The notes beneath the pieces were generated by a model. That model was not told the DNA's origin. It was given only the letters and a program-made list of their open reading frames with translations, and did not search any database. This document shows, one piece after another, positions 4,636 to 37,881 of a stretch of 38,011 bases of DNA. Made by a program: the position numbers and the translations under genes. This stretch comes from a virus (lineage: Duplodnaviria; Heunggongvirae; Uroviricota; Caudoviricetes), in IMG/VR virus record IMGVR_UViG_2585427747_000001, positions 1-38,011 of that record, one strand, 5' to 3'. Position 1 is the first letter of the stretch. Each line of letters begins with the position of its first letter.

Positions 4636-4883
4636 TTCACACCTCCTCAAGTTATCAGTTACTTGTTGATGGGGACCAGATTGTTAAAGAGCTAAGCGTC
4701 CTGTAGGGCGCTTTTTTGTTGCTAACGAATCACCCTAGACTTCATATGCCCCAGGCGGCTACTTCGTGGGCGTCCTGCCTGTTCGTTTTTGACATTTACT
4801 GACTGCTTACGACACATGCACCGTGTTGCAACCAGATTTTGTTGTAATCCTGTAGTTGGTCTGGAACAAAAGATAAAATTAAA

Positions 4884-4920
4884 TTGCGAGATATGCAAGT
4901 GATATTTGCGAGATATGCAA
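4884..4920. promoter_or_regulatory. Putative OL: two tandem 15-bp operator-like sites TTGCGAGATATGCAA (22-bp period), probably overlapping the leftward early promoter
   Basis: Exact direct repeat; the same TTGCG-N6-GCAA pattern recurs between the repressor and cro genes; on the minus strand each site contains a TTGCAT hexamer that could serve as a -35. Confidence 0.55.
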
Positions 4921-4932
4921 CTTTATAGGTAA

Positions 4933-4955
4933 TAAAAAGCCACCTTTCGGTGGCC
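4933..4955 (-). terminator. Rho-independent terminator downstream of the repressor gene
   Basis: GC stem gccacc/ggtggc with a tttc loop; on the minus strand it is followed by a T-run. Confidence 0.55.
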
Positions 4956-4974
4956 GATGGATGGGATATTGAGG

Positions 4975-5667
4975 TTAATTATGTCTCTTAAGGGTTTGCG
5001 ACTGACTGATTAAGACCTTTCCAAAGACCATGAATCGGTGTTCGTTTTCGCTAGTAATTCCCCATTCACGGTAAATCTGGTTATCAGAAATCACCAGCAG
5101 TTTGTCAGGAATCATTTGAAGTCTTTTAACGTATATTTTGTCATCAAAACCAAAGACATATATACCATCACCATCAAACTGATTGATGCTGACATCAACG
5201 AAGATGAGATCTCCTGGCTCAATGGTTGGACACATACTGTCCCCACGAACGTTGATAACTTTGATGTGATTGGCTGGTCGTCCGCCGAACATTGATACAG
5301 CATTATCAGTTCTGTATTCGATGGCATGAATCACATCAATGACATCACCGCCCTGGATAAGGCCATTTCCCGCACTGGCACTGATATCCAGCATTTCAAT
5401 ACGGAACACATCCTTCACCTGCGCAACATCCTCATTATTACTGTTTTTATATACAGTATTACTTTTGTGGGCAGAGGTAAAGAGATCAGCAATATCAACA
5501 CCTAAGCTCTTGGCAATATTACTCAGTGTTTGTTCGGTAAATTGTTTTTGCTTACCCGTTTCTAAGCGCGAGATGTTCGCCGCATCTACTCCTATTGCTT
5601 CAGCGAGATCGGCGATTTTCATGTTCTTCGCTTGGCGAAGTTGTCTGACTCGGTTTCCTATGTTCAT
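4975..5667 (-). CDS. CI-like prophage repressor (N-terminal HTH, C-terminal S24 LexA-type peptidase domain)
   Basis: N-terminal HTH (RVRQLRQAKNMKIADLAEAIGVDAANISRLETGKQ); 230 aa; divergent from a cro-like gene with operators between. Confidence 0.8.
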   Translation of the reverse strand: MNIGNRVRQLRQAKNMKIADLAEAIGVDAANISRLETGKQKQFTEQTLSNIAKSLGVDIADLFTSAHKSNTVYKNSNNEDVAQVKDVFRIEMLDISASAGNGLIQGGDVIDVIHAIEYRTDNAVSMFGGRPANHIKVINVRGDSMCPTIEPGDLIFVDVSINQFDGDGIYVFGFDDKIYVKRLQMIPDKLLVISDNQIYREWGITSENEHRFMVFGKVLISQSQTLKRHN

Positions 5668-5687
5668 GCGTTTATTACATTTCTTTA

Positions 5688-5748
5688 TTGCGTGATAAGC
5701 AAATCAACTTGCGCAAAATAATTGCGTGAAATAACATGCATAACGCGC
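5688..5748. promoter_or_regulatory. Putative OR/PR/PRM region: operator-like sites TTGCGTGATAAGCAA (~5688-5702), the palindrome TTGCGCAA (~5709-5716) and ATGCATAACGCGCAA (~5734-5748) between the divergent repressor and cro genes
   Basis: Shares the TTGCG-N6-GCAA half-site pattern with the tandem sites at 4884-4920; 97-bp divergent intergenic region. Confidence 0.5.
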
Positions 5749-5764
5749 AATATTTGGAGGACAT

Positions 5765-6025
5765 ATGCAATCACCATTACGAAATGTGCGTAAGGCGCAT
5801 GGTTTCACTTTGCAGCATGTTGCTGCGGGTGTTCAAGTCAATCCAGCGACGTTGAGTCGTATTGAGAGGCTGGAGCAGATTCCATCTATCGAGCTTGCAG
5901 AACGTTTAGCCAATTTTTTTAAGGGTGAAGTCAGCGAAATGCAGATTCTTTATCCGGCACGTTTTCAATCTAGCCAAAACCAGAATGGGTTTAAACCACA
6001 GGAACAGGAGGTGAACCGTGGGTAA
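5765..6025 (+). CDS. Cro-like HTH transcriptional regulator (XRE family)
   Basis: HTH (HGFTLQHVAAGVQVNPATLSRIE) at the N-terminus; divergent from the repressor; RBS GGAGG upstream. Confidence 0.75.
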   Translation: MQSPLRNVRKAHGFTLQHVAAGVQVNPATLSRIERLEQIPSIELAERLANFFKGEVSEMQILYPARFQSSQNQNGFKPQEQEVNRG

Positions 6026-6569
6026 GCATCACTGGAAAGTAGAAAAACAGCCTGAGTGGTACGTGAAAGCTGTCAGAAAAACTATCGCAGCGTTGCCGGG
6101 GGGGTACGCTGAAGCTGCTGACTGGCTGGATGTAACAGAGAACGCATTATTTAACCGCCTTCGTGCCGATGGCGATCAGATTTTCCCGCTGGGATGGGCA
6201 ATGATTTTGCAACGTGCTGGTGGAACTCACTTCATTGCTGACGCTGTGGCCCAGTCTGCAAATGGCGTCTTTGTGTCTCTTCCTGATGTCGAGGATGTGG
6301 ACAACGCCGATATCAACCAACGCCTGCTGGAGGTCATTGAACAGATCGGCAGTTATTCAAAACAGATTCGTTCAGCAATTGAAGACGGTGTAGTGGAACC
6401 GCATGAGAAGACAGCAATTAACGACGAGCTGTACCTCTCAATTTCGAAGCTGCAGGAGCATGCAGCACTGGTCTACAAAATTTTTTGCATTTCAGAAAGT
6501 AATGACGCCCGCGAGTGTGCAGCTCCGGGCGCCGTGGCGTGTCGTGACTGTGGAGAAACTAACGCATGA
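6018..6569 (+). CDS. CII-like phage regulatory protein (CP76 family)
   Basis: Position immediately after cro; 183 aa; family assignment from overall resemblance, not a search. Confidence 0.55.
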
Positions 6570-12096: not shown

Positions 12097-13380
12097 CTAT
12101 GACCGTGAAAAGTAGTGATGGTTCAGTTCTTTTGCAAAATAGTGCTTACGTTTAACCCAGATAAAACCATCAGCTTTAGAAATGATTGCAACATCTATGG
12201 GGCCTCCCACTGTTTCAGTATCATCGGAGACCTTGCGCTTGAAAGCGGTTAAATTTACTAATGATTCAGCCATATAAGCTAAATCTTGCTTGGGTAAAAA
12301 CTCGATCATATTTACGACTTTGTCAACATAGTTTTCTCGGACAAAGCTATCAATACGCCCCTTGCAATCGGAAACAGTCCTGCGCACTACATCAACTATA
12401 GCATCCTTGGCTCCTTCGATATCTGAAGTGGGCACCAAATCTGTGATTACTGAATCAATACCATCAAGTAAATCGCCGATAGAACGTTGATACTCAGCAT
12501 GAAGATTTTGGATAAGATGTGAACTAGCTCCTTGCATGAAAGCAGAAACTTCATCCTCTTGCGCAAAGGGAGTCACTCCGCAATTAGGAGTGATGCAGCA
12601 CTTGTCAGCATCTGTGGTTTTCCTGATTTTATCATTAAAGAAGCCACAAACTTCATATGATAATACTTTAGGGTAATAGTCTTTATCGCCATAACCTGCA
12701 ATCACAATCCCAGAGACGGAACCAATATCACTTTGCTTGCATATCATAGCTGCCAATACATCACTAACTGCTTTTGTCAACTGTGGAGTTATGGATATTG
12801 AATCAAAGTCACTAAACTTTTGAGCAATGATGCGTTGGGTAACTGATGAAGCATAGGTTTGGGCTGCTTGTTCATCATCCGGAGTAAAACCATCAAAGTA
12901 ATTAATATCAGATAATTTTGTAAGGAGATCGTTGCAATAATTCGTGAGGTCTGTAACAAATTGATTCTTATCGAAGTTAACGAAATATGTTGGTTCGAGA
13001 CCTTCAGAAAAAGCATCAACAAGCATGCTGAATACAATCTCGCTCAGGAAGTGATAAAGATGAGCCTCACGCATACCTGGTGTGATGATTGATTTAGCCG
13101 ACTGTAGATAATTGAAGAAATCCTCAGCATATTCCTCCAAAGAGTCAAAACATTTAGAGCCTAAATCCTTTCTATAAGCCTTAATGATAAGCTCCCATGG
13201 AGCTGTGCAGAGATCACCAGTTCCATATACCATCAAACCTACAGGATGATGTTTAGTTAGAGCGAAAAGCTTTTCAGCGCCATTATAGATTTTATGTTTG
13301 CCGCCTCCAGAAATCGTTACAGCTGAATCTGCGGCTAAAGCTACTGCGGTCTTGTTAAATACGGCTATTTCTGCTGTCAT
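12097..13380 (-). CDS. Proteasome/HslV-like Ntn-hydrolase-domain protein (427 aa); AT-rich accessory gene in the Q-to-lysis slot
   Basis: N-terminus MTAEIAVFNKTAVALAADSAVTIS…VGLMVYGTGD mirrors HslV (Thr after the initiator Met, Asp at mature position 17, downstream Lys); C-terminal GGPIDVAIISKADGFIWV resembles the proteasome beta C-terminal strand; opposite strand to its neighbours; visibly low GC. Confidence 0.6.
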   Translation of the reverse strand: MTAEIAVFNKTAVALAADSAVTISGGGKHKIYNGAEKLFALTKHHPVGLMVYGTGDLCTAPWELIIKAYRKDLGSKCFDSLEEYAEDFFNYLQSAKSIITPGMREAHLYHFLSEIVFSMLVDAFSEGLEPTYFVNFDKNQFVTDLTNYCNDLLTKLSDINYFDGFTPDDEQAAQTYASSVTQRIIAQKFSDFDSISITPQLTKAVSDVLAAMICKQSDIGSVSGIVIAGYGDKDYYPKVLSYEVCGFFNDKIRKTTDADKCCITPNCGVTPFAQEDEVSAFMQGASSHLIQNLHAEYQRSIGDLLDGIDSVITDLVPTSDIEGAKDAIVDVVRRTVSDCKGRIDSFVRENYVDKVVNMIEFLPKQDLAYMAESLVNLTAFKRKVSDDTETVGGPIDVAIISKADGFIWVKRKHYFAKELNHHYFSRS

Positions 13381-28228: not shown

Positions 28229-28675
28229 TTACTGTGCGAACACGCAATTTCGGCCTGATGGGGAGCCGACAATTCTGGACATTTTTTCGCAAATAACAGT
28301 TACTTGTTCTCCTTTTTTAAGAGCAGCAGCTGTTGATTTTTCAGAGTCTTGCATCTCCATTCTTGCTGGCATGAATTCATTTTCAGTTCTGAATTTAATA
28401 ATTATAGAGTCAGTAAAGTCCTTATCAATGGATTGTACGATACCTCTAACGGCGATTAATTTACCTTTTAACTGTTCATCGGTAGCGACTTCATTTTCTT
28501 CATACTCTTTAAACAGCTGTCGAGCAGTAGTGTTGTAGATTTCTTTTTGCGGTGCCGCAGCTTCCGTATCGGATGAGTATGAAGAATTAGAGCCTTTATC
28601 GTTATTGCCTGCAAAATATCCAATAATCACCAACCCGATGAAAATATATAAAATCCATTTTAATAATTTCTTCAT
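28229..28675 (-). CDS. Membrane-anchored/secreted OB-fold-like protein; AT-rich accessory gene inside the tail module
   Basis: N-terminal signal/TM (MKKLLKWILYIFIGLVIIGYFAG), no lipobox Cys; the mature region resembles small periplasmic OB-fold proteins; opposite strand to all neighbours; AT-rich. Confidence 0.55.
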   Translation of the reverse strand: MKKLLKWILYIFIGLVIIGYFAGNNDKGSNSSYSSDTEAAAPQKEIYNTTARQLFKEYEENEVATDEQLKGKLIAVRGIVQSIDKDFTDSIIIKFRTENEFMPARMEMQDSEKSTAAALKKGEQVTVICEKMSRIVGSPSGRNCVFAQ

Positions 28676-32163: not shown

Positions 32164-33208
32164 ATTTCAGCGCCCGACGCTGGCAGAAAATATCAGTATG
32201 CTCCGTAACGATTTATTCGCCAGGCTGGACGTCAGCGACACGCTCCGGCGCATGGATGAAGACGTGCGGGCAAAGGTGTATGCGGCGGCGCTGCATACGG
32301 TTTACGGGTACATCGATTATCTGGCAATGAATATGCTGCCTGACCTGTGCGATGAGTCCTGGCTGGCGCGACATGCTGCGATGAAACGGTGTCCGCGCAA
32401 GGGGGCCACGGCTGCCAGCGGGTATATGCGCTGGGAAGGTGTCAGCGATGGCCTGAAGGTGACTGCCGGGAGCGTGATTCAGCGCGATGACCTGGTTCAG
32501 TACACGGCAACTGCCGATGCAACCAGCTCCGGTGGTGTCCTACGTGTGCCGATCACTTGCTCAACTACAGGCGCGGTCGGTAACGCTGACGACGGTACGT
32601 CATTAATCCTGGTCACGCCGGTGAATGGTCTGCCGTCTTCCGGTGTTGCAGATACCCTGACTGGCGGATTCGATACTGAAGATCTGGAAACGTGGCGCGC
32701 CCGCGTCATTGAGCGGTATTACTGGACGCCGCAGGGCGGGGCTGACGGGGACTATGTCGTCTGGGCTAAAGAAGTGCCCGGCATTACCCGCGCATGGACA
32801 TACCGTCACTGGATGGGAACGGGAACTGTCGGTGTGATGATTGCCAGCAGTGACCTGATTAATCCCATTCCGGAAGAATCAACGGAAACGGCGGCAAGAC
32901 AACATATCGGGCCACTGGCCCCGGTGGCAGGCTCTGATTTGTATGTGTTCAGGCCGGTGGCACATACGGTGGATTTTCATATCCGCGTGACGCCGGACAC
33001 ACCGGAAATACGGGCTGCCATCACCGCGGAGTTGCGTTCGTTCCTGCTGCGTGATGGTTATCCGCAGGGAGAACTGAAGGTATCGCGTATCAGTGAGGCG
33101 ATTTCCGGTGCGAACGGGGAATACAGCCATCAGTTGCTTGCACCGGCAGACAATATCTCCATTGCAAAAAATGAACTGGCGGTTCTGGGGACGATTTCAT
33201 GGACGTGA
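32150..33208 (+). CDS. Baseplate J-like protein (gp47)
   Basis: 352 aa; position in the baseplate cluster. Confidence 0.65.
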
Positions 33209-33783
33209 CAAACGATGATTACATCCGTCTGTTGTCGGCACTGTTGCCCCCCGGTCCGGCGTGGTCAGCCAGCGATCCGGCGATTGCCGGTGCGGCACCG
33301 TCATTAACCCGCGTTCATCAGCGTGCGGATGCCCTGATGCGGGAGCTGGATCCGCGCACCACCACTGAACTGATAAACCGCTGGGAGCGTCTGTGCGGCC
33401 TGCCGGATGAATGTATTCCGGCGGGAACGCAGACCCTTCGTCAGCGTCAGCAACGGCTGGATGCGAAGGTTAATCTGGCGGGCGGCATCAATGAGGATTT
33501 TTACCTTGCACAGCTTGCTGCCCTGGGCAGACCAGACGCCACCATCACGCGATACGACAAAAGCACGTTCACCTGCTCATCGGCCTGTACTGACGCAGTG
33601 AATGCGCCGGAATGGCGGTATTACTGGCAGGTCAACATGCCAGCCGCCACCAACACCACCTGGATGACATGTGGCGATCCCTGTGATTCCGCACTGCGTA
33701 TCTGGGGCGACACCGTTGTCGAGTGCGTGCTTAACAAACTCTGCCCTTCGCATACCTATGTAATTTTTAAATATCCGGAGTAA
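33199..33783 (+). CDS. Mu gp48 / YmfQ-like tail protein (DUF2313)
   Basis: 194 aa; Cys-containing C-terminus; precedes the tail fibre. Confidence 0.55.
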
Positions 33784-33786
33784 TCC

Positions 33787-34719
33787 ATGCATCGTATAGA
33801 CACGAAAACCGCGCAGAAGGATAAGTTCGGCGCGGGTAAGAACGGTTTTACCCGTGGTAACCCCCAGACCGGCACACCTGCCACCGATCTGGATGATGAC
33901 TACTTTGACATGTTGCAGGAAGAACTTTGTAGCGTGGTGGAGGCCTCCGGTGCCAGCCTGGAGAAGGAGCGGCACGACCAGTTGCTTACCGCGCTTCGTG
34001 CGCTGCTGTTAAGCCGCAAGAATCCGTTTGGTGATATCAAATCGGATGGCACGGTGAAAACGGCTCTCGAAAACCTTGGTTTGGGAGATGGCTCGGGGCG
34101 TTACTGCAAAACTGTCGTTTTTTCATCGTCGGGTTCATATACGTGGCCAGCTGACGTAAAACGAATTGACGTTATTCTGACTGCGGCTGGCGGCGGTGGC
34201 GGTGGATGTAACGCGGAGAACGCAAATCAGACATTTTCAGGGGCTGGCGGAGGAGCCGGAGGTACTGTTTTTGCCACTATTTATGCGACAGACAACGATG
34301 CCGGGCCAGGAACCTATACAGTGACAATTGGCAGCGGTGGTAGTGGTGCCAATGGGGCAGGGTCTGGAAATAATGGCGGTAATAGTTCGTTCATGACATT
34401 AACTGCGCTCGGTGGCCAGGGTGGGCAATGGGGCGGCGCTACAAATACCGCTGGCGGGCGCGGTGGCTCAGGCTCTGGCGGTTATAAAACTGAACAAGGC
34501 GGAGACGGTTCAGACGGACAGGCGGGCCAGGCGCTATTAGTAGGCAATGGGGCATCGAGCTATTGGGGTGGCGGCGGCCGCGCTGGGCAACTGAGCGGTA
34601 ATCCTGGAGTTTGCTCTGGCTCCGGCGGCGGGGGTGCATACGATAATAGCTATTCACACACGTCAGGACGTGGCGGGCACGGAGCTAATGGCGTGCTGGT
34701 AATTCGGGAGTACATGTAA
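33787..34719 (+). CDS. Tail fibre protein with Gly-rich C-terminal repeats
   Basis: Conserved tail-fibre-like N-terminus ([47 protein letters not shown]); long Gly-rich low-complexity region; followed by a tail fibre assembly gene. Confidence 0.7.
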
Positions 34720-35124
34720 ATGAATGATATCTATGCAGTTGTTGATAATAACGTTGTTATTAATGTCATTATCTGGGACGGAATTTCTGAATGGAAACCA
34801 GAGGCTGGTAATTTAGTTCCGTTAAACGGCGATGCTGGCATCGGTTGGTCATATTCAGACGGAGTATTTACCGCGCCACCTCCCCCAGAACGCTCTCACA
34901 ACGCGTTAGTTGCGGAGGCTGAGCTGCAGAAATCAGCACTACTGACCGTAGCAAATAACACAATAGCACCGCTGCAGGATGCCGTTGATTTGGAAATGGC
35001 GACAGACGATGAACAGGCGTTACTGCTGGCGTGGAAAAAATACAGGGTACTGCTGAACCGTGTTGATACCTCAGCGGCACCCGAAATAGAGTGGCCTACG
35101 CAACCGGGGGAGCGGGCCAGTTGA
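34720..35124 (+). CDS. Tail fibre assembly protein (Tfa)
   Basis: C-terminal region (…[33 protein letters not shown]) typical of Tfa chaperones. Confidence 0.7.
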
Positions 35125-35290
35125 TATCAGGCGCAGCGTCAGCATCAACTGCTGTCACTGCGTCGATGTAGTCGAGTACCGCATTCAGCCGCGTTTTTTC
35201 ATCATCAGTCAGTTTGCGGCCTGCACTTCTCCGTTGACATCTTTGTTATATGGTACAACTGCGCAGAGGCCTGTCTCTTCAATTGTGCCA
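35095..35290 (-). pseudogene. Inverted remnant of a second tail fibre assembly gene (C-terminal fragment only)
   Basis: Minus-strand translation …[37 protein letters not shown]… parallels the C-terminus of the adjacent plus-strand Tfa (TDDE…AAPEIEWP); no upstream partner gene; coordinates approximate. Confidence 0.4.
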
Positions 35291-35382
35291 GTTGAATACT
35301 ACGATACAACGCTCGGCCTTCCTGTTTGGTGGAACATAACCACATCCACATGGAAAAGAGCTGATGGTGTAGATGTATAAAC

Positions 35383-35412
35383 TTAAAAAAGGCGCTTTTT
35401 AGCGCCTTTAAA
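35383..35412. terminator. Bidirectional rho-independent terminator (aaaaaaggcgc ttttt agcgccttt)
   Basis: Perfect GC stem flanked by A-run and T-run; sits between the convergent tail fibre genes and the acyltransferase gene. Confidence 0.7.
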
Positions 35413-36537
35413 TTAAGATATTCTTTTAGCTATAGAATGACCTATATTTATAAACGGTTTTTCTATTACGTTATATATCAAGTAAGATAGGCTTATAGAA
35501 ATTATGAGCGATGATATATAAATGGCAAACGATCTATGTTCAGTGCTAACACCAATGCTGGAACCGTAAAACTCAATAAACTGTATAACAGGAACATGAA
35601 TCAGATAAAGTGAATATGATATTCCACCAAGAGCAACAAGTGATTTATTGAATGAAATAACTTTATTATTTTCTAGAATAATAACACATAAAACAATCAG
35701 AAATGCAATATATGCAGATCGCGTCAAACCATGTCCTTCAGACACCCCATTAAGCCAAAAAACAAACATCATTCCTAGAATGAAAACGCATAAACTATTT
35801 ATAATAGCATTATTCATTCTTTTATGCCTAAGTAAAGGCATTGTCTCTGATATAATCATCCCTAAAATGAAATCATATACTATAGGGTTGCCTATGAATC
35901 CTATATGAGAAAACACTCCTGTTTTTGCAATATTGAATGATTGGGCGTCAATTACTACCGAGTGGTTAAAGTAAAGAGAAATAATTGTACTTACAGCAAC
36001 TAGAAAACATGATGTGATTAATACCCTGTATTTTATACTTAATGACATGGATATTGCGAAAATAAAATAAAAATATATCTCGTACCCAAGTGACCATGAA
36101 ACAATTAGTGTTCCCCACCCATAATATGGCGGTAGAGTTGAGCCATCTAAAGGGATGAGAAGAAATGATTTTATAATATTATTTATAGAAAAAACACCAC
36201 CCCATGATACGCCTGTGTAAATATTGTGGTAAAAAAGAAAAACATAAACGCTTAATACTATTGCGTAAACAGGATAAATTCTAAAAAATCTCTTTACAAG
36301 AAATGAAGCGGTATTTCTTAAAGATGTTTTCGCTAAGTTTTTAGTTGAGTATGATATTATAAATCCGCTTATTATAAAAAACAATTCAACTCCAAATATA
36401 GCATTCGCGGTTATCCTGTCCATGAAAGAACCAGGATCTACTTGCCCGAAAAGACCTCTATTATGACCAATAGCTACAGCAAGAGCTGCAATTCCACGAA
36501 GCGCTTCTATTCCGTATAATTTATCTGTTTTCATCAA
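35413..36537 (-). CDS. Acyltransferase family 3 integral membrane protein (O-antigen acetylase-like lysogenic conversion gene)
   Basis: 374 aa, ~10 predicted TM segments; N-terminal YGIEALRGIAALAVAIGH motif typical of the OafA/Oac acyltransferase-3 family; very AT-rich; next to the integrase at attR. Confidence 0.75.
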   Translation of the reverse strand: MMKTDKLYGIEALRGIAALAVAIGHNRGLFGQVDPGSFMDRITANAIFGVELFFIISGFIISYSTKNLAKTSLRNTASFLVKRFFRIYPVYAIVLSVYVFLFYHNIYTGVSWGGVFSINNIIKSFLLIPLDGSTLPPYYGWGTLIVSWSLGYEIYFYFIFAISMSLSIKYRVLITSCFLVAVSTIISLYFNHSVVIDAQSFNIAKTGVFSHIGFIGNPIVYDFILGMIISETMPLLRHKRMNNAIINSLCVFILGMMFVFWLNGVSEGHGLTRSAYIAFLIVLCVIILENNKVISFNKSLVALGGISYSLYLIHVPVIQFIEFYGSSIGVSTEHRSFAIYISSLIISISLSYLIYNVIEKPFINIGHSIAKRIS

Positions 36538-36677
36538 GTAATATAGTTAGTAGTTGATAAAATTGTTGCTGGAGTCTACCACCAAGAGCTTGGATGATCG
36601 ACCAGTTAGCATCTCAAGCTGTATGCGTGAGACAAAAACGAGACACACAAAGCTTTGCAAGTCTTTGCGCTGTTTAC

Positions 36678-37835
36678 CTATGATACCTTCTCCTCAAGCC
36701 AGTCCGCCCACCACTGCATCATTTCTCTGCGCTTATCGAGATACTGAGCATGGTTGTAAATACCGCGCACAGATCCGCCGTTGGCATGTGCCAGCTGCAC
36801 TTCAATAGCGTCAGCAGGCCATTCGTGCTCGTTCATAATCGTGCTGAATTCATGCCTGAATCCGTGACCGCTTTCCAGACCTTCATAGCCGATTTGTTTG
36901 ATCACAAGCAATACCGCGTTCTCGCAGATTGGCTTCTTCTTATCGTTGCGCCCGGCAAAAACAAACTCTGAGACTGGTTTGGTGATTGAGCTTAGCGTAG
37001 TGAGAAGTTCAACCACCTGGTCTGACATCGGGACCACATGAATTTTGCGTCCCTTCATCACACTGGCGTCGATGGTGATAATCCTGTTTTCAAAATCGAC
37101 GTTCTTCCATAGCATGGAACGAAGCTCTTTCGTTCTTAGGGCTGTATAACGTAAAACTTTTGTCGCAATGAGCGATACGATACTTCCTGAAAATGTTGCC
37201 AGTGCTTTGTTGAATGCAGGCATCTGGTCTGCTGGAAGGAACGGGAAGTTCTTCTTGCGGTATCCTTTCATGGCGTCTGCAAGGTCAGGTGCCGGGTTAT
37301 ATTTAGCCCTTCCGGTGACAATAGCGTAACGAAAAACCTCGCCGCATCTTCTGCGGGCTTTGTTGGCTCGCTCCATTGCACCGCGATCTTCAAATCTGCG
37401 GATTACTTCCAGCAGTTGCATCGGCTCAATATCCTGAATCTCAAGACCGCCGATGATGGGTAAAATGTCGTCATCAAACATTTTGGCAAGTTCAGTTGCA
37501 TAGCCTACTGACCAGACTTGCTTCTTGTGCTCGTACCATTCCTTGTAAATCGCACTAAATGAATTGTTGTTAGACGAAGCCTTTTTCGCCTTTACCGGAT
37601 CGATGCCAACCGAGATGTCTTTCCTCGCAGTCCATGCCTTATCCCTTGCTTCCTGCAAAGTCATAAGCGGATATTTTCCGACAGTCAGGATTTTCTCCTT
37701 ACCGTCAATCTTGTAGCGAAGCTGCCATACCTTTTTCCCTGATACAGGGACATAAAGGTACAGGCCATTACCATCGAGTAGGCGGTATGGTTTTTCTTTC
37801 GGCTTTGCTGCTTCAATCTGCTTAACGGTGAGCAT
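36678..37835 (-). CDS. intS: Tyrosine integrase (P4-type), IntS-like
   Basis: Start trimmed to MLTVKQIEAAKPKEK…; C-terminal catalytic region (…HGFRHEF…LAHANGGSVRGIYNH…Y); adjacent to attR and the tRNA 3' end. Confidence 0.85.
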   Translation of the reverse strand: MLTVKQIEAAKPKEKPYRLLDGNGLYLYVPVSGKKVWQLRYKIDGKEKILTVGKYPLMTLQEARDKAWTARKDISVGIDPVKAKKASSNNNSFSAIYKEWYEHKKQVWSVGYATELAKMFDDDILPIIGGLEIQDIEPMQLLEVIRRFEDRGAMERANKARRRCGEVFRYAIVTGRAKYNPAPDLADAMKGYRKKNFPFLPADQMPAFNKALATFSGSIVSLIATKVLRYTALRTKELRSMLWKNVDFENRIITIDASVMKGRKIHVVPMSDQVVELLTTLSSITKPVSEFVFAGRNDKKKPICENAVLLVIKQIGYEGLESGHGFRHEFSTIMNEHEWPADAIEVQLAHANGGSVRGIYNHAQYLDKRREMMQWWADWLEEKVS

Positions 37836-37881
37836 GGGTAAAAATCCGGTGGGTAAAATTATTTTATCCACTTTTTACCCG
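37836..37881. promoter_or_regulatory. Three TTTTACCC motifs (two on the minus strand, one on the plus strand) over the intS start/promoter in the attR arm
   Basis: gggtaaaa at ~37836-37843 and ~37851-37858, ttttaccc at ~37873-37880; shared with the attL arm. Confidence 0.4.

Follow-up and report, generated by a model that had tools for sequence, protein, structure and literature searches.

The window, by which we mean the whole stretch of DNA analyzed here (38,011 nucleotides), contains a contractile-tailed E. coli prophage that encodes a sheath, a tape-measure protein, a baseplate of the Mu gp46/gp47/gp48 type, a large terminase, and a CI-like repressor, and belongs to the SfV/CPS-53 (KplE1)/e14 type. 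Near its right-hand end lies the gene for an IntS-type tyrosine integrase (36678..37871, minus strand; Pfam Phage_integrase, E 7e-39), and the context in a near-identical record (L001) places the prophage at tRNA-Arg (argW), beside yfdC. The tail module includes a reversed gene (28229-28675, minus strand), flanked by those for the tape measure and DNA circularization, whose 148 amino acid product matches the Pfam family tRNA_anti-like, an OB fold (E 3e-19), and a PHROG annotated as 'superinfection exclusion Sie-like' (E 1.5e-49), with no PADLOC match; this gene is probably a moron. Another minus-strand open reading frame (ORF), of 427 amino acids (12097-13380), has no Pfam or PADLOC match and aligns end to end with PHROG 5990, a family of unknown function (E 1e-236).

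The segment that concerns us begins with a baseplate gene of the YmfQ/Mu Gp48 family (33199..33783, plus strand; Pfam Phage_Mu_Gp48, E 9e-27), located directly upstream of the tail-fiber gene as it is in e14. The fiber gene (33787..34719, plus strand) appears in the ORF listing as an intact reading frame of 310 codons and consists of a StfP-like constant N-terminus, extending to about position 34063, joined at a crossover site to a variable glycine-rich C-terminal domain (residues 114-307; Pfam Gly_rich_2, PF21722, E 1.4e-18). The protein is 80% identical to StfP over residues 1-128 and 95% identical to SfIV_20 over residues 1-105; StfP, SfIV_20, YfdL, and the window fiber have a common N-terminus through ...ALENLGLG and diverge immediately after it. 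A tblastn search with the glycine-rich tip returned no match, probably owing to the low-complexity filter. RefSeq/PGAP divides the fiber gene (4001-4933 in L001) into an 'stfP partial pseudogene' and a 'glycine-rich domain-containing protein'; this split looks like an annotation artefact, the window showing one uninterrupted 310 amino acid chimera. The fiber gene is followed by an intact tail-fiber assembly gene, tfa, which encodes 134 amino acids (34720..35124, plus strand; Pfam Caudo_TAP, E 4.6e-33).

The junction between the constant and variable parts of the fiber gene coincides with a Pin/Gin-type crossover site of 26 bp, CTCTCGAAAACCTTGGTTTGGGAGAT (34064..34089), which shares 25 of its 26 bases with the left-hand site of the P segment in e14. 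Inversion in e14 has been demonstrated experimentally, with TTGGTTTGGGAGAAGG and its complement as the repeats used (PMC12529663), and window positions 34076-34091 agree with this published repeat in 15 of 16 bases. The site is the sole match in the window and the single survivor of its kind: 100 shuffled sequences yielded none, and the window contains neither a second site at up to three mismatches nor an inverted-repeat partner.

Past tfa, the opposite strand carries the remnant of another gene of the same family, denoted tfa' here (35096..35233, minus strand), that is, the last 45 codons and the stop codon (35098-35096) of an inverted TfaE-like tail-fiber assembly gene. The minus-strand peptide quoted in an earlier note on this DNA is reproduced exactly on translation, and the similarity to Tfa proteins that had been set beforehand as the test of its identity is readily detected. 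The 45 residues encoded at 35233-35099 match the Pfam domain Caudo_TAP (PF02413; E 6.1e-11) with 43 bits, above the curated cut-off of 22.1 bits, as well as the tail-fiber-assembly families of PHROGs (E 1e-14 to 7e-7), and are 66.7% identical to residues 156-200 of e14 TfaE (tblastn, E 9e-9). The proposed parallel with the C-terminus of the plus-strand Tfa was likewise borne out, at 46% identity across 35 amino acids, as was the convergence of the two genes, which meet tail to tail with an overlap of 29 nt (35096-35124).

What remains of tfa' falls well short of a complete gene. The open frame comprises 49 codons (35245-35099), with a further stop directly upstream; according to the ORF listing, no ATG, GTG, or TTG start in this frame gives an ORF of at least 30 amino acids, and the sole option, a CTG, would give one of 38. 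The Caudo_TAP match spans only positions 94-130 of the 131 in the profile, the last third of the domain, and the N-terminal part, the start codon, and the full domain are all absent. PGAP labels the remnant 'tail fiber assembly protein, incomplete, missing N-terminus' in an E. coli record of 99.5% identity, and E. coli 042 carries the same partial-pseudogene annotation. Across about 60-70 complete E. coli genomes, tfa' is 91-100% conserved. Its closest proteins in a large database are all fragments of 24-60 amino acids, word-indexed protein searches with tfa' and with the adjoining stub described below returned only fragments of 24-63 amino acids and no full-length close relative, and megablast of 34700-35450 against a phage collection gave no match. 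A sequence of 45 amino acids is short, which speaks for a chance antisense resemblance of non-coding DNA; against this stand the Pfam and PHROGs scores and an identity of 67-83% to intact inverted tfa genes that occupy the same position and have the same 29-nt overlap, and we assign this explanation a negligible probability. Judged by these alignments, the similarity is not fortuitous, and tfa' is very probably a non-functional relic, a pseudogene, of the second, inverted tail-fiber assembly gene of a Pin/Gin-type segment.

The earlier note had extended the minus-strand fragment over 35095-35412. Homology to Tfa is real at 35099-35233 only; on the minus strand, 35234-35412 is the reverse of a plus-strand remnant, stub X, and of a terminator hairpin. 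Stub X (35234..35380, plus strand) was recognized by a PDB match and by tblastn as the last ~44 codons and the stop codon of a tailspike gene, with the C-terminal module GTTAQRP...YYDTTLGLPVWW...; the plus strand from 35234 encodes LTSLLYGTTAQRPVSSIVPVEYYDTTLGLPVWWNITTSTWKRADGVDV*, ending at 35380 (48 codons, 147 nt), and the window's own allele ends in ...WWNITTSTWKRADGVDV. It matches residues 584-627 of the 627 residues of CBA120 TSP3 (PDB 6NW9/5W6F; E 8.9e-12), its tblastn matches lie where annotated tailspike genes end, and it is 59.5% identical to the C-ends of tailspikes in P22-like E. coli prophages, which X alleles match at 89% identity across 74 nt. Altogether, 215 representative clusters match stub X, and many of the best matches are at the extreme C-terminus of long proteins. 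The beta-helix body of a tailspike is absent, the upstream DNA being tfa' on the other strand. In its 3' third, the stub exists as several alleles that keep the reading frame, each associated with one cargo, and one allele is frameshifted; a search of complete E. coli genomes yielded no tailspike that ends in the allele carried by the window. We considered and rejected identity of stub X with the small toxic protein YodE of K-12, the sequences being unrelated despite the equal size (48 amino acids) and the position in CPS-53, where yodE (L013, 5498-5644) fills the slot between tfaS and gtrS. Kagunavirus and CBA120 were rejected as donors of stub X, these being lytic phages with neither cargo nor an integrase beside the tailspike.

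The two stubs, about 45 codons each and on opposite strands, meet at about 35234-35245, where similarity to both source genes ends: DNA similarity to e14 stops at 35237 and protein similarity to TfaE at 35233, and similarity to tailspikes starts from residue 2-7 of the ORF that opens at 35234. Beyond stub X lies a GC-rich hairpin flanked by runs of A and T (35388..35409), which was scored as the terminator of the minus-strand cargo gene and may act on both strands. Relatives with other cargo cease to be similar at position 35380, short of the hairpin, which we therefore assign to the cargo. The cargo gene itself (35413..36537, minus strand) encodes an acyltransferase-3 family membrane protein (Pfam Acyl_transf_3, E 9.5e-29; about 30% GC), presumed to be an O-antigen acetylase, and GC content falls to 0.28-0.36 across about 35300-36500. 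Among 5426 complete E. coli genomes, five carry this gene, always in the same context, and it fills the slot that gtrA-gtrB-gtrC occupies in sister prophages, between the tail genes and int/attP. The sequence between the start of the acyltransferase gene and the integrase gene (36555-36668) is 91-93% identical to the ends of E. coli prophages without the acyltransferase and is probably where the cargo slot ends on the right.

The earlier note suggested that the insertion of the acyltransferase gene and its terminator had truncated the invertible segment. The low-GC cargo block is indeed only ~150 nt beyond tfa', and the invertase, which comes next in e14, is missing. However, the broken end of tfa' adjoins stub X, not the cargo, from which it is separated by these 147 nt of tailspike sequence, and the joint is shared far more widely than the cargo. 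It is conserved base for base in sister prophages, where it adjoins either the acyltransferase or gtrA-gtrB together with one of four different gtrC-type genes, at argW or at bioA/ybhB; similarity of the prophages with other cargo to the window ends only at 35322-35380; and the pair of stubs occurs in more than 60 of the 5426 genomes, compared with five for the acyltransferase. Because an identical joint is found beside different cargos at two attachment sites, it must be older than, and independent of, the acyltransferase, and truncation by this cargo is highly unlikely.

Whether tfa' has been kept for a function, either as the 38 amino acid peptide translated from CTG or as an antisense or 3'-end element of the tfa transcript, is a question that its conservation naturally raises, all the more as 29 of its nucleotides double as tfa coding sequence. 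Such conservation also fits recent common descent, and a functional role sits poorly with the lack of a conventional start, the restriction to the last third of the domain, and the fact that SfV does without the remnant. In E. coli 042, all five substitutions in tfa' change the amino acid, a weak argument given that the intact tfa has the same pattern; a synonymous/non-synonymous count on the stubs met too few differences, again with the same pattern in the intact tfa. Retention for function appears to us highly unlikely, and both stubs presumably lack a present-day role.

The relic reading of tfa' draws its main support from comparison with e14, in which ymfQ-stfP-tfaP is followed by tfaE-stfE' in inverted orientation and finally by pinE. 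Identity between the window and e14 is 96.4% over 33000-34091, a region that covers the baseplate gene and the constant fiber N-terminus, and the similarity then ends at the crossover site; e14 has both sites, the right-hand partner being inverted and located inside stfE'. The e14 P segment and the window share the upstream baseplate gene, the fiber N-terminus, the position of the site, and the convergent tfa/tfa' pair with its 29-nt overlap. Unlike e14, the window has no second fiber tip, right-hand site, or pin gene, retains only 45 codons of tfa', and carries a variable cassette (the glycine-rich tip with its own tfa) that resembles neither e14 cassette. Compared with inversion systems of the Din family (Gin/Cin/Pin/Hin), it possesses a crossover site within the fiber gene at the constant/variable junction, and lacks an adjoining serine invertase, a pair of inverted sites, and two convergent fiber-tip-plus-chaperone cassettes, its complement being one complete cassette (fiber tip and tfa) and a 45-codon chaperone stub.

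The absence of a partner fiber gene and of an invertase, both claimed in the earlier note, holds throughout the window: there is no inverted fiber tip, and tblastn with PinE finds nothing at E <= 0.1. In place of pin, the window has the tailspike stub and the genes for the acyltransferase and the tyrosine integrase. Because there is one site only, no second fiber cassette, and no invertase, the fiber is predicted to be locked in one state, incapable of switching; a single site gives no reason to expect inversion.

Intact relatives add to the case. In L008, a phage-plasmid of approximately 90 kb, fiber and tfa genes are followed by an inverted tfa with two fiber-tip cassettes and then by an invertase; this invertase is 83% identical to PinE, and the inverted tfa matches the window tfa' at 83% identity over 42 amino acids. 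The search suggested in the earlier note, for an intact inverted fiber/Tfa pair with an invertase, thus succeeded in e14 and L008. It failed for the same tfa' allele, of which no full-length copy accompanied by an inverted fiber cassette and an invertase was found among the relatives, L008 being the best intact one, and for this reason the invertible ancestry of the window lineage rests on comparison. Given the synteny with e14, the left crossover site placed where e14 similarity ends, and these intact relatives, descent from a host-range switching segment appears well supported; as the cause of its truncation did not hold up, the interpretation offered in the earlier note is, as a whole, partly supported.

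Two short relatives were rejected as intermediates. A 57 amino acid plasmid relative belongs to a P1-like C segment that is in fragments and carries a resolvase, and a 60 amino acid Citrobacter relative is probably a frameshifted same-strand tfa beside an acyltransferase gene. The latter locus (L019, Citrobacter youngae, 4765-6431) has a pair of Caudo_TAP ORFs, of 101 and 60 amino acids, that overlap on one strand and lie beside an inverted Acyl_transf_3 gene in a non-prophage neighborhood. The 60 amino acid ORF is 75% identical to the window tfa', and the pair is probably one frameshifted tfa of the same allele type in what looks like a heavily decayed prophage end.

The origin of stub X is illuminated by P22-like E. 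coli prophages, which were reached by searching with one stub X allele and which encode a tail needle knob, ejection proteins, and a head-binding tailspike. In these prophages (L014-L016), which lie at bioA/ybhB, inverted gtrC-gtrB-gtrA comes after a full-length tailspike gene. L012, a sister of the window prophage with the same tfa'/X joint, is 97.6% identical to the P22-like prophages over 5031 nt, an identity that begins inside stub X, at the equivalent of about 35297 in the window, and continues through the gtr cargo into bioA. The podoviruses Sf6 and HK620 and the CPS-53/KplE1 prophage have been reported to have a common argW attP (bioRxiv 10.1101/2021.04.09.439263).

These observations suggest the following history, whose order of events we infer. 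The ancestor would have encoded a serine invertase that recombined two inverted crossover sites, so as to place either of two cassettes, each a variable fiber C-terminus with its matching chaperone, behind one constant N-terminus. The lineage retains the constant part, the left site, one full cassette (the glycine-rich tip and tfa), and 45 codons of the other chaperone gene; the rest of tfa' is gone, as are the invertase, the right-hand site, and the second fiber tip. In podovirus prophages, the 3' end of the tailspike gene comes immediately before the cargo for O-antigen modification, with the attachment site and the integrase gene beyond it. Most likely, a single illegitimate recombination event joined the myovirus tail module, broken in tfa', to such a 'tailspike end-cargo-attP-int' module, and the cargo would have been swapped later by homologous exchange inside the tailspike stub. 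We regard this explanation, combining the relic with the history of a fossil joint, as highly probable. A further step is more tentative, and we put its prospects somewhat below even: that the pair of stubs, as the fossil joint of two morphotypes, would still provide in stub X a homologous-recombination entry point through which prophages of the SfV/e14 type and P22-like prophages exchange cargo, attachment sites, and integrases, at the price of the host-range switch.

An inversion system with several segments, similar to Min of p15B or to a shufflon, could in principle have given rise to both stubs, with stub X being a third fiber tip left on the plus strand by inversion of a sub-segment before an internal deletion. 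The two fiber-tip cassettes behind the inverted tfa of L008 indicate that multi-cassette systems exist in this family, and the X module is widespread at the C-termini of fibers as well as tailspikes. Yet no relic of a crossover site was found near stub X, the X alleles match the ends of P22-like tailspikes across the 74 nt noted above, and the match between L012 and the podovirus prophages extends without interruption into their cargo and attachment region, as a podovirus origin predicts. We consider a multi-segment origin of stub X unlikely, and a podovirus tailspike remains the preferred source.

In the practice of annotation, the locus signifies a prophage that would make one fixed fiber type, with no host-range switching. 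As a discovery, it carries little weight: remnants of Pin/Gin-type fiber switches are already catalogued, K-12 tfaS being one, and RefSeq already treats tfa' itself as a partial pseudogene. The tailspike stub and the exchange of cargo across morphotypes are modest extras, in that they exemplify how serotype-converting cargo might move between podovirus-type and myovirus-type prophages via a stub of the tailspike end.

Among known systems, the G segment of Mu (S-U/U'-S', with Gin) and the C segment of P1 (Cin) follow the logic of the e14-type ancestor of the window: a constant fiber N-terminus, two inverted fiber-tip-plus-chaperone cassettes, and a serine invertase downstream, as seen in a P1-like locus (L020). 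The comparison with Mu drawn in the earlier note is apt at this level and fails in the matter of overlap, since U and U' of Mu converge with a gap of 28 nt, in contrast to the 29-nt overlap in the window; furthermore, the Mu fiber and chaperones are only distant relatives, and the window system is dead.

The closest parallels are tfaS of CPS-53/KplE1 and orf22 of SfIV, each an inverted TfaE-like remnant located after tfa in an SfV-type prophage with O-antigen cargo; both prophages share with the window an IntS integrase at argW, the 29-nt overlap, a single crossover site, and the lack of an invertase. In the last ~65 residues of TfaE, tfaS (100 codons) and orf22 (174) are 94-97% identical to it, compared with 67% over 45 residues for the window tfa'. 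The break points also differ, with ISEhe3 in SfIV and another spacer in K-12, and neither prophage has a tailspike stub. The SfIV paper calls orf22 an 'additional' tfa and makes no mention of inversion.

Taken together, prophages of the SfV/CPS-53 type display graded decay of the fiber switch. The inverted tfa encodes 200 amino acids in e14, where the second fiber tip and the invertase are present, and 174 in SfIV (orf22, SfIV_22), where it is cut by ISEhe3; it is a pseudogene of 100 codons in K-12 CPS-53 (tfaS), amounts to 45 codons adjoining the tailspike stub in the window, and is gone from SfV, in which a terminator and gtrV directly follow tfa. All five have kept the crossover site in the fiber gene, and the 29-nt tfa/tfa' overlap is identical wherever the remnant exists, that is, in e14, CPS-53, SfIV, the phage-plasmid L008, and the window.

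On the other side of the joint, the comparison is with the P22-like converting podoviruses (Sf6, HK620, Kapi1, and L014-L016), in which the last ~44 residues of the tailspike match stub X and the tailspike end is oriented and placed, with respect to the cargo, as in the window. They differ in that the window prophage has a contractile tail, with a sheath and a Mu-like baseplate, and its tailspike is reduced to the last 48 codons.
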